A program made the translations under genes and the position numbers. Below, piece after piece: positions 15,006 to 16,540 of a stretch of DNA of 49,117 bases. Each line of letters begins with the position of its first letter. Positions within the stretch are counted from its first letter, which is position 1. Below the pieces are notes generated by a model. It saw nothing but the letters and a program-made list of their open reading frames with translations. It was not told the origin of the DNA and ran no database searches. This DNA is from Acidimicrobiia bacterium (lineage in GTDB: Bacteria > Actinomycetota > Acidimicrobiia > Spongiisociales > UBA5794). Location of the stretch: NCBI GenBank assembly GCA_051011415.1, contig JBPCTY010000135.1:1-49117 (forward strand), given 5' to 3'.

Positions 15006-16321
15006 GATGCGACTGCCTTGACTGGTGTCAAGGCGGCGAACGCCTGCGCAAAGTCTGCCTTGATGTCGTCGATGTGTTCGATTCCGACTGACACCCTGAT
15101 GAGATCGTCAGTGACGCCCGCCGCTAGCTGCTCCTCGCGGTCCAGCTGCTGGTGCGTGGTTGAGCCCGGGTGAATGACCAGCGTCTTTGCATCGCCCACG
15201 TTGGCGAGGTGCGATGCCAGTTCGACGCCATCGATGAATCGCTTCGCAGCGTCCGCTCCGCCGTCAACTCCAAACGACAGCACACCGCCGTATCCTTTGG
15301 TCAGGATCCTTGACGCGATCTCGTGATACGCGTGATTCTCGAGCCCTGGGTAGTTCACCCAGCTGACCTCGTCCTGGTCTGCAAGCCACCTTGCGAGCTC
15401 CAGAGCGTTGTCTGCGTGTCGCTGAACTCGGAGCGACAACGTCTCGACACCTTGAAGCAGCAGGAATGCGTTGAACGGCGACAGGGCTGCACCGAGATCA
15501 CGGAGACCCTCGACCCGCGCCCTGATCGCAAATGCGATGTTTCCGAATGGGCCGTCCGGGCCGAAGGTGTCGGAGAACACCAGTCCGTGATAGCCGGGCG
15601 AGGGTTCGGTGAACTCTGGGAACTTCCCATTTCGCCAATCAAAGTTCCCGGAATCAATGATGACTCCACCAATGGATGTTCCGTGCCCACCGATCCACTT
15701 CGTTGCGGAGGCCACGACGATGTCGGCACCGTGCTCGATGGGCCGCGCAAGGAACCCCGCTGCGCCAAAGGTGTTGTCCACGATCAGTGGCACGCCTGCA
15801 TCGTGGGCAACGTCTGCAAAGGCCGGGAAATCGGGCACGTTGAATCGAGGATTCCCGATCGTCTCGAGGTAGACGGCCTTCGTCCGGTCATCGATCCTCG
15901 CCGCAAAGTCCGCCGGATCATCGCTCGCCACGAACCGGACCTCGATACCGAGGCGTTCCAGCGCGACCTTGAACTGGTTGTACGTGCCGCCGTATAGATA
16001 CGAGGTGGAAACAATGTTGTCGCCAGCTGATGCGAGCGTTGTGATTGCAGTGAGTTGCGCTGCTTGGCCGCTCGCAGTCGCCACCGCTGCGACCCCACCC
16101 TCGAGGGCTGCGATGCGCTGCTCGAACACATCGGTCGTCGGGTTCATGATCCGTGTGTAGATGTTCCCGAATTCTTCCAAGGCGAAGAGGCGAGCTCCGT
16201 GTGCAGAGTCGTCAAACGTGTATGACGTTGTCTGGTAGATCGGGACAGCCCTGGCATTGGTTCCGGGTGCTGGCTCCTGTCCTGCGTGGAGTTGGAGTGT
16301 CTCGTAGCGGTGGTCGGTCAT
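15002..16321 (-). CDS. metY: O-acetylhomoserine aminocarboxypropyltransferase (sulfhydrylase)
   Basis: Contains [29 protein letters not shown] (PLP Lys), [15 protein letters not shown] and [12 protein letters not shown]. Confidence 0.96.
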
Positions 16322-16375
16322 GTTGGGTCTCCCTGTAGTCGTGCGAAGGTGCCACGGTTTCGGGAGATGCTGACC

Positions 16376-16414
16376 AAAGAAGAAAGGACCTGCCCGTTGC
16401 CGGTGCAGATCCTT
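16376..16414 (-). terminator. Attenuator terminator (3:4 hairpin) upstream of metY
   Basis: The minus strand reads AAGGATCTGC-A-CCG-GCAA-CGG-GCAGGTCCTT-TCTTCTTT: a 13-bp stem with a GNRA loop and U-rich tail. Confidence 0.8.
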
Positions 16415-16433
16415 CGAGTCGGTGTTGGTGTTG

Positions 16434-16502
16434 CTACGCGAGTGGTCTGCACGGCTGTGTCATGGCCATGCACATCATCTCGCGGGTGAAAGCAACGTTC
16501 AT
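16434..16502 (-). CDS. Putative Met-rich leader peptide [22 protein letters not shown]
   Basis: 22-codon ORF with ATG ATG TGC ATG GCC ATG at codons 9-14, located between a promoter and a terminator upstream of metY-metX. Confidence 0.8.
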
Positions 16503-16512
16503 ATGGCGAGTG

Positions 16513-16540
16513 AATATACCCGTGATGGGTTCAATGTCAA
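16513..16540 (-). promoter_or_regulatory. Sigma70/HrdB-type promoter of the met leader (TTGACA-N16-TATATT)
   Basis: Perfect -35 TTGACA (16540-16535, overlapping the mscS stop) and -10 TATATT (16518-16513), 10 nt before the leader ATG. Confidence 0.7.

Follow-up and report, generated by a model that had tools for sequence, protein, structure and literature searches.

A candidate methionine-codon leader-peptide attenuator upstream of metY-metX in Acidimicrobiia

Textbook leader-peptide attenuation responds to Trp, His, Phe, Leu, Thr or Ile/Val, with trpL, hisL, thrL, leuL, pheL and ilvL as the classical enteric examples. Methionine genes are described as being controlled by repressors, S-adenosylmethionine (SAM) riboswitches or T-boxes. 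Here we analyse the leader of metY-metX in a stretch of 49,117 nt from an Acidimicrobiia bacterium (assembly GCA_051011415.1, contig JBPCTY010000135.1, positions 1 to 49,117; "the window"). A preliminary description of this DNA had proposed an attenuator of the trp/his/leu type before metY-metX, a layout which is now backed by its anatomy, its conservation, covariation and a swap of codons among related leaders; all coordinates given in that description proved correct. With a probability of roughly 0.8, we regard the metY-metX leader as a ribosome-mediated (leader-peptide) transcription attenuator.

The closest cases described in Actinobacteria come from two sources, each available in part. 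For mycobacteria, leaderless small open reading frames (sORFs) encoding polycysteine are described as acting by translational attenuation, with the Cys tract pairing with the Shine-Dalgarno (SD) sequence of the next gene (10.1101/834739, available part). The accessible portion of a survey (PMC1262725) lists candidate Cys leader peptides in Mycobacterium, P. acnes and B. longum, which are without terminators, and trp/ilvB attenuators in Corynebacterium and Streptomyces, which have them. The same portion states that the regions before methionine operons showed no conserved RNA structure; the taxa surveyed may not include Acidimicrobiia. In the titles and abstracts returned by our full-text literature searches, whose coverage excludes most subscription journals, no Met-codon leader attenuator is described, and the novelty of such an element is provisional.

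The leader begins with a predicted promoter on the minus strand, TTGACA-N16-TATATT, recovered exactly where it had been proposed (see Table 1 for all features). It matches the consensus at 11 of 12 positions in a sequence scan and is the only promoter-like site between positions 15900 and 17000, for which shuffled sequences lead one to expect 0.3. The end of the -10 element is separated by 10 nt from the ATG of an upstream open reading frame (uORF) that lacks an SD sequence and is presumably translated leaderless or nearly so. The core of the earlier proposal, a near-leaderless ORF of 22 codons with four Met codons and one Cys codon within codons 9 to 14, is present as described, Met occupying codons 9, 10, 12 and 14 and Cys codon 11. 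A second Cys at codon 18 brings the total to four internal Met and two Cys codons; it is unlikely to serve as a sensor because it sits inside segment 2 of the RNA structure introduced below and is constrained by pairing. The frame of the uORF is open further upstream to 16862 (a 142-aa ORF at 16434-16862, minus strand). As this longer frame overlaps an MscS-type channel gene in a different frame, and as the upstream sequence varies among relatives, we judge its openness to be mechanical. The genes behind the leader are metY and metX, as had been proposed, both scoring above the cut-offs of their family models; the start of metX and the end of metY have 4 nt in common, and the metY ATG lies 54 nt 3′ of the T tract of the leader.

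Table 1. Positions of the predicted leader elements, the adjacent genes and the related elements in other loci
Feature	Position	Strand	Remarks
-35 element TTGACA	16540-16535	minus	promoter element
-10 element TATATT	16518-16513	minus	16-nt spacer from -35; whole promoter 16540-16513
Leader ORF (uORF)	16502-16434	minus	22 codons plus stop; ATG at 16502, TAG at 16436-16434
Regulatory codons 9-14	16478-16461	minus	ATG ATG TGC ATG GCC ATG (Met Met Cys Met Ala Met)
Segment 1 (TGCATGGC)	16472-16465	minus	partner of segment 2; 97.2% of cells paired
Segment 2 (GCCGTGCAGA)	16455-16446	minus	alternative partners: segment 1 or segment 3
Outer extension of hairpin 1:2, CGCGAG/CTCGCG	16484-16479 with 16442-16437	minus	
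Further extension of 1:2, GTTGCT/AGCAAC	16496-16491 with 16435-16430	minus	
Segment 3 (TCTGCACCGGC)	16409-16399	minus	left arm of the predicted terminator; antiterminator partner of segment 2
Predicted terminator hairpin 3:4 (AAGGATCTGC-A-CCG GCAA CGG GCAGGTCCTT) plus T-rich tract TCTTCTTT	16414-16376	minus	
Anti-SD hairpin	16367-16328	minus	UCUCCC (16367-16362) with metY SD GGGAGA (16333-16328)
metY, O-acetylhomoserine sulfhydrylase	15002-16321	minus	TIGR01326, 692.9 bits (cut-off 495.1); ATG at 16321
metX, homoserine O-acetyltransferase (MetX)	13944-15005	minus	NF001209, 382.3 bits (cut-off 331)
MscS-type channel gene	16537-17433		upstream neighbour; ends inside the -35 element at 16537
SAM-I riboswitch	G000:C104:5541-5625 (L182)	+	
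SAM-I riboswitch	G000:C49:1836-1922 (L183)	-	
SAM-I riboswitches in sister genera	L185 462-564; L186 3548-3633; L187 1246-1355		
Thr-type leaders	L088, L090, L092, L094, L102, L108-L110, L113, L128		match at about 1501-1640 of 3-kb loci
Cys-type leaders	L071, L072, L112, L114-L122, L124, L125, L129-L138, L179		common terminator core

Conservation was assessed in an alignment of 72 cleaned homologues of the leader (70 or 68 distinct sequences for some counts), and in these relatives both the uORF and its Met cluster are kept. An ATG or GTG is found at the aligned start position or one codon earlier in 72/72. The distance from start to stop amounts to 66 nt in 56 sequences, 63 nt in eight, 69 nt in four and 78 nt in one, a multiple of three in 69/72; the remaining three show an earlier stop past the sensor codons or an alignment slip. 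Stop codons occur in frame 0 in four of the 70 distinct sequences, in frame 1 in 69 and in frame 2 in 19. It has to be noted that openness of the frame by itself is weak evidence, as frame 2 is likewise free of stops in 51/70. The TTGAC -35 element is kept in 66 of 68 distinct Met-type leaders, and in all 68 the start codon follows 7-10 nt after the end of a TAnnnT -10 element and lacks an SD sequence; the gap of 7 nt is confined to nine leaders, all nine GTG-initiated. Two to five internal Met codons and one to four Cys codons are present in every one of the 68.

The regular occurrence of Cys bears on the nature of the signal, for which the preliminary description had named Met-tRNA. We take the signal to be Met and probably Cys as well, rather than Met alone, because a Cys codon lies among the Met codons in most lineages (a genus with the sensor MMMPMAHM being different in this respect). 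We consider it quite improbable that the leader instead senses cysteine or general sulfur supply and contains Met codons since ATG suits the pairing of segment 1, even if all 68 Met-type leaders carry Cys codons, MetY uses sulfide, some sensors have Cys equal to Met in number (e.g. EMCCMAM, RMICMAC, GCMCMA) and Cys-type paralogues of the scaffold exist. The MMMPMAHM genus has five internal Met codons in a sensor devoid of Cys, two ATG codons located 5′ of segment 1, outside the core helix, are still conserved, and dedicated Cys leaders (four to seven Cys, zero to two Met codons) precede genes of the cysteine-synthase family, not metY.

Three mutually exclusive helices (1:2, 2:3 and 3:4) had been proposed for the leader RNA, and both folding and alignment recovered them at the same positions. 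The minimum free energy (MFE) structure of the RNA from 16510 to 16322 (-70.7 kcal/mol, z = -4.85; 0/200 shuffles as stable) contains hairpin 1:2 with both of its extensions, hairpin 3:4 and a hairpin in which the SD sequence of metY is paired (anti-SD hairpin). A simple terminator scan did not have the 3:4 hairpin among its output, presumably on account of the one-base bulge in its stem. Across the homologues, the structure of the terminated state (1:2 plus 3:4) is paired in 85.8% of the alignment cells, compared with 36-49% when the partners are slid, and 20 of its 32 pairs are changed on both sides (13.2 +/- 1.7 in shuffles, of which 0/500 reach 20). Helix 3:4 is paired in 91.6% of the cells, with six pairs changed on both sides; in the outer extensions of 1:2, all 11 pairs are changed on both sides and just 63-79% of the cells are paired.

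The antiterminator 2:3, absent from the covariance model used for searching, is paired in 92.3% of the cells versus 15-52% upon sliding. One column of segment 2 (A in the window) forms G-C (35 sequences), A-U (34) or G-U (1) with segment 3, none being unpaired. The same column of segment 3 forms C-G (37), U-G (21) or U-A (14) with segment 4, again with none unpaired, and the same column of segment 2 forms U-A (34), U-G (28) or C-G (6) with segment 1, two sequences being unpaired. A single position covaries through helices 1:2, 2:3 and 3:4. When the RNA spanning segments 2 and 3 is folded alone, which corresponds to the state with a ribosome hiding segment 1 and segment 4 not yet transcribed, at least eight of the ten proposed pairs appear in the MFE structure of 67/72 homologues. 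Mean free energies are -25.7 kcal/mol for 1:2, -19.2 for 2:3 and -21.1 for 3:4. A check of the helices for conservation and covariation, as suggested beforehand, is in favour of them, with pairing far above the slid controls and switching among G-C, A-U and G-U in 2:3.

According to our proposal, transcription would start at the start codon of the uORF or a few nucleotides before it, and a ribosome would load at this 5′ end, which has little or no leader, and translate the 22 codons while RNA polymerase advances. With plentiful Met-tRNA and Cys-tRNA, the ribosome would arrive at the stop codon and cover the 3′ half of segment 2, and with no ribosome loaded, segment 1 would pair with segment 2 and 3:4 would form. 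Whether covered or tied up, segment 2 would leave the 3:4 terminator to form and transcription would end at the T tract near 16376. Upon scarcity of charged tRNA-Met or tRNA-Cys, the ribosome would stall with codon 9, 10, 11 or 12 in the A site, masking segment 1 and covering little or no segment 2. Helix 2:3 could then form before segment 4 exists, which would block the terminator and allow the polymerase to read into metY-metX. The well-established trp/his model, together with the anatomy of the leader, is our basis for inferring that the uORF is translated, that ribosomes stall, that termination takes place and that the system responds to methionine.

The leader DNA was matched by BLAST in 14 of 41 relatives. 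From the homologues found by BLAST we built a covariance model (R1) and, in addition, used a shorter core model (R2). R1 matched 63/133 genomes in the family of the window, representing 11 of 30 genera. In the order, there were matches in 26/151 genomes and 4 of 12 families (f1 10/19, f3 7/19, f6 7/18 and f11 1/14, with none in eight others), and in the class in 11/151 genomes, all from that single order. As a rule, the Met-type element is present once per genome, 33-80 nt before metY. When 185,579 species genomes were scanned for an exact pattern, 38 stretches turned up, every one in a metagenome-assembled genome (MAG); the labels are mostly Acidimicrobiia or Acidimicrobiaceae, in some cases just Actinomycetota, Actinomycetes or uncultured bacterium, and once Armatimonadetes. 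We therefore take the host to be an uncultured actinobacterium of the Acidimicrobiia type. Two leader-free genomes of the same genus (G001 and G002) had no metY match at E <= 1e-60, for which reason the absence of the leader is uninformative there.

Several matches were set aside. Before any counting, six (L070, L074, L075, L123, L126 and L140) were dropped for being partial or having no suitable uORF, as was a weak match before an OsmC-like gene (L139). The tallies of codon classes were also cleared manually of seven loci that duplicated a place already counted (L098, L099, L100, L101, L103, L106 and L111). Three rows were filed under metX: L039, where a leader of the Met type adjoins a metY remnant; L107, which is degenerate with one internal Met codon; and L075, the partial match already named. 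In L039 (genome G128, 1501-1800) the leader is followed by a short remnant resembling a metY start and then by metX; its segment 2 is altered (GCCGGCCAG, peptide ...QPARSLA), and the locus may represent a decaying attenuator after loss of metY. One contig carries identical copies of the leader and the metY start about 9 kb apart (G112:C18:58467-58607 and 67694-67834; L045 and L046), either a recent duplication or an assembly artefact.

Over 151 genomes of the phylum, R2 gave one match outside the class (L180 in G482), a plain 3′ terminator without uORF which we rejected as a homologue. The terminator core is a GC-rich hairpin of a common kind, and the MscS-type gene upstream of the metY leader ends inside the -35 element. 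One may think of the conserved hairpins as a terminator or insulator that acts constitutively behind the upstream gene, combined with a promoter, the small ORF being there by chance or encoding a functional micro-protein. We find this scarcely credible, since the hairpin is always located 3′ of a conserved promoter and 5′ of metY while the upstream sequence varies among relatives, and since those peptide residues that are conserved either coincide with pairing segments of the RNA or represent the amino acid of the pathway itself.

An Rfam scan of the whole window at gathering thresholds reported two tRNAs only (genes at 6421-6494 and 33255-33326 (+)), with no SAM riboswitch (RF00162, RF00634, RF01725) and no T-box (RF00230). 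In an E-value scan of positions 15800-17200 the best matches had E = 3.9 and 6.3, from unrelated families and at chance level, so that the earlier suggestion to look for a SAM riboswitch or T-box in the metY leader led to no such Rfam match. Elsewhere in the genome of the window we found two SAM-I riboswitches above the Rfam cut-off and no SAM-IV match. One SAM-I precedes a metH-like gene (homocysteine S-methyltransferase and pterin-binding domains), the other a rhodanese gene and a second Cys/Met pyridoxal-phosphate (PLP) enzyme. A T-box-like match in the same genome (G000:C192:16440-16655 (+), L184) scores 71.1 bits, below the Rfam cut-off of 93.

Three leader-free genera of the same family have metY orthologues with 72-75% identity, and in these a SAM-I above the Rfam cut-off lies on the same strand, 145-815 nt upstream of the orthologue, the stretch in between being annotated in one of them. 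Leader and SAM-I replace each other before metY, as expected of two regulators of one pathway. A riboswitch for SAM, S-adenosylhomocysteine or Met, or a T-box-like tRNA sensor, with an incidental ORF, would be in line with the usual control of met genes in Gram-positive bacteria, with the two SAM-I elements elsewhere in the genome and with the strongly structured leader RNA. As an explanation of the metY leader we nevertheless hold it to be very improbable: no Rfam family matches, the RNA consists of hairpins only, without a multi-stem junction, and the start codon, the frame and indels in threes are all conserved. Nor can a ligand pocket explain why codons for Thr or Cys take over when the downstream gene is a different one.

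This codon swap came to light in the weaker R1 matches and in an R2 search of a second family in the order, where R2 matched 30/101 genomes (29/100 without one flagged as unpublished), with up to three copies per genome. After removal of duplicates, the 68 leaders before metY have two to five internal Met codons, as given above. Ten leaders of the second family, located 22-80 nt before the homoserine dehydrogenase gene (hom), have five to eight Thr codons and zero to two Met codons (most have one or two), e.g. MNAGFTTGMTTTTDGPCVSTV and MSAAITTTTMTTAHEPCGPVV; in their segment 1, ACG/ACC codons replace ATG/TGC with pairing to segment 2 retained. A further 23 leaders, with four to seven Cys codons that often alternate as CxCxC, are found before a PLP enzyme of the cysteine-synthase family (19) or a TusA sulfurtransferase (4), e.g. 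MTRHFSLCACTCTCCAAAPCG. By NCBIfam/Pfam scores, homoserine dehydrogenase (384-423 bits, cut-off 205) and TusA (76.3 bits, cut-off 28.6) are assigned; the remaining enzyme is called cysteine-synthase "family" only, as its CysK/M subfamily match is below the trusted cut-off. In one genome, metY is preceded by a leader of the Met type and hom by one of the Thr type. In 35 Thr- and Cys-type rows, helix 2:3 is paired in 86.5% of the cells compared with 27-50% upon sliding, by column count.

The codons of the leader track the downstream gene: Met with metY, Thr plus Met with hom, and Cys with cysteine and sulfur genes. Such a pattern is predicted by a codon sensor, but neither by an RNA that binds a ligand nor by a plain terminator. 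The anatomy, the conservation, the covariation and this match between codons and pathway are direct observations.

Several points weigh against transcription attenuation in response to Met. The covariation of 2:3 rests essentially on one position, and since the two states of this column follow clades, it may reflect only one or two events; pairs changed on both sides number two in 2:3 as opposed to 1.3 in shuffles, a value reached by 203/500 of these. No covariation of 2:3 is seen in the 35 Thr- and Cys-type rows, and a cruder duplex test of 2:3 in Thr and Cys leaders, which took its terminator arms from MFE structures and used mononucleotide shuffles as controls, was not significant (mean z -0.45, 4/33 below -2). 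The T tract of the window is interrupted (TTTCTTCTTT) and that of several relatives is poorer still, e.g. TTTCTGATG, which puts the efficiency of intrinsic termination in doubt. Met and Cys codons are interleaved, so the signal may not be Met alone. As the uORF has no SD sequence and the -10 element ends 10 nt before its ATG, initiation would rely on leaderless-type translation from the predicted 5′ end. On conceptual grounds, a shortage of Met would also limit the initiator tRNA, thereby reduce translation of the leader and favour termination. Translation of the sensor cannot itself begin without Met, which poses the question how a shortage of elongator Met-tRNA is told apart from that of initiator Met-tRNA.

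The imperfect T tract, in the window as in its relatives, also speaks for another output of the same kind of uORF: sensing of Met/Cys charging might act mainly on translation or through Rho-dependent termination, with the 3:4 and anti-SD hairpins gating access of ribosomes to metY, as in the mycobacterial poly-Cys sORFs. Leaderless Cys sORFs of mycobacteria attenuate translation according to the available part of 10.1101/834739, and in 51/66 distinct homologous spacers the MFE structure pairs the SD sequence of metY with a CUCCC located upstream. The anti-SD hairpin may indeed form a second, translational layer of control. In some lineages (L015-L020, L042, L079-L083), as constrained folding suggested, segment 4 is complementary to the anti-SD strand (-16 to -21 kcal/mol), and formation of 2:3 would thereby release the SD sequence. 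As a general feature, however, this pairing had to be discarded: in a comparison of duplexes with shuffles over 66 distinct leaders, the mean z was -0.64, with 4/66 below -2 and +0.78 for the window. A mainly translational or Rho-dependent output appears unlikely to us, because a stable hairpin directly before a T-rich run is conserved in 72/72 homologues, because the 2:3 alternative competes specifically with the 3:4 hairpin and because the codons of the uORF themselves do not pair with the SD sequence of metY.

Returning to the leader-peptide transcription attenuator as the favoured interpretation, we lean, with reservations, towards a wider view of the whole set of leaders. The metY-metX element would be the first leader attenuator responding to Met-tRNA charging, in a codon-swappable family of the Acidimicrobiia: one scaffold re-aimed at Met (metY-metX), at Thr plus Met (hom) and at Cys (cysteine-synthase-like genes, tusA) by point changes of the type ATG to ACG or TGC that keep the 1:2 pairing. 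In some lineages the chain of helices would extend to the SD sequence, and a single stalled ribosome would then control transcription as well as translation. Within the genome of the window, one pathway would receive two signals, SAM through SAM-I at the metH-like gene and the second Cys/Met PLP enzyme, and Met-tRNA charging through the leader at metY-metX; judged from the sequence, each of the two signals seems to act on steps of its own in this pathway. A natural series of attenuators with one scaffold and differing codon specificity could serve as a guide for designing synthetic amino-acid sensors and help to annotate regulation better in the Acidimicrobiia, in which the named carriers are all uncultured MAGs.

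Compared with known systems, the metY leader is a functional analogue of SAM-I (S-box, RF00162), being likewise a predicted transcription-attenuating leader before methionine genes; SAM-I senses SAM directly through an aptamer without translation, and the metY leader does not match RF00162. It joins the leader peptides predicted before amino-acid genes of Actinobacteria in the accessible portion of PMC1262725. With the mycobacterial poly-Cys sORFs, as far as their report is available, it shares the actinobacterial phylum and sulfur-metabolism genes downstream, and like them it would use a leaderless short ORF to sense the charging of a sulfur-amino-acid tRNA. The available part presents those sORFs without a terminator/antiterminator pair, whereas the metY leader has a conserved competing pair. 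In further contrast to the poly-Cys sORFs, the sensor of the window reads MMCMAM, with no consecutive run of Cys, and the SD sequence of metY pairs with a separate UCUCCC and not with the uORF.

In layout, the metY leader resembles the enteric attenuators: a short ORF enriched in codons for the end product, four segments forming 1:2, 2:3 and 3:4, and a predicted terminator with a U tract before the first structural gene. The leaders with Thr, or Thr plus Met, before hom resemble the multivalent thr leader with its Thr and Ile codons. The metY leader shares no sequence homology with the enteric ones, and no Rfam leader family was matched. Unlike them, the metY leader would sense Met (with Cys), starts without an SD sequence 7-10 nt after the -10 element, occurs in Acidimicrobiia and is built on a scaffold that is common to the Met, Thr and Cys versions.

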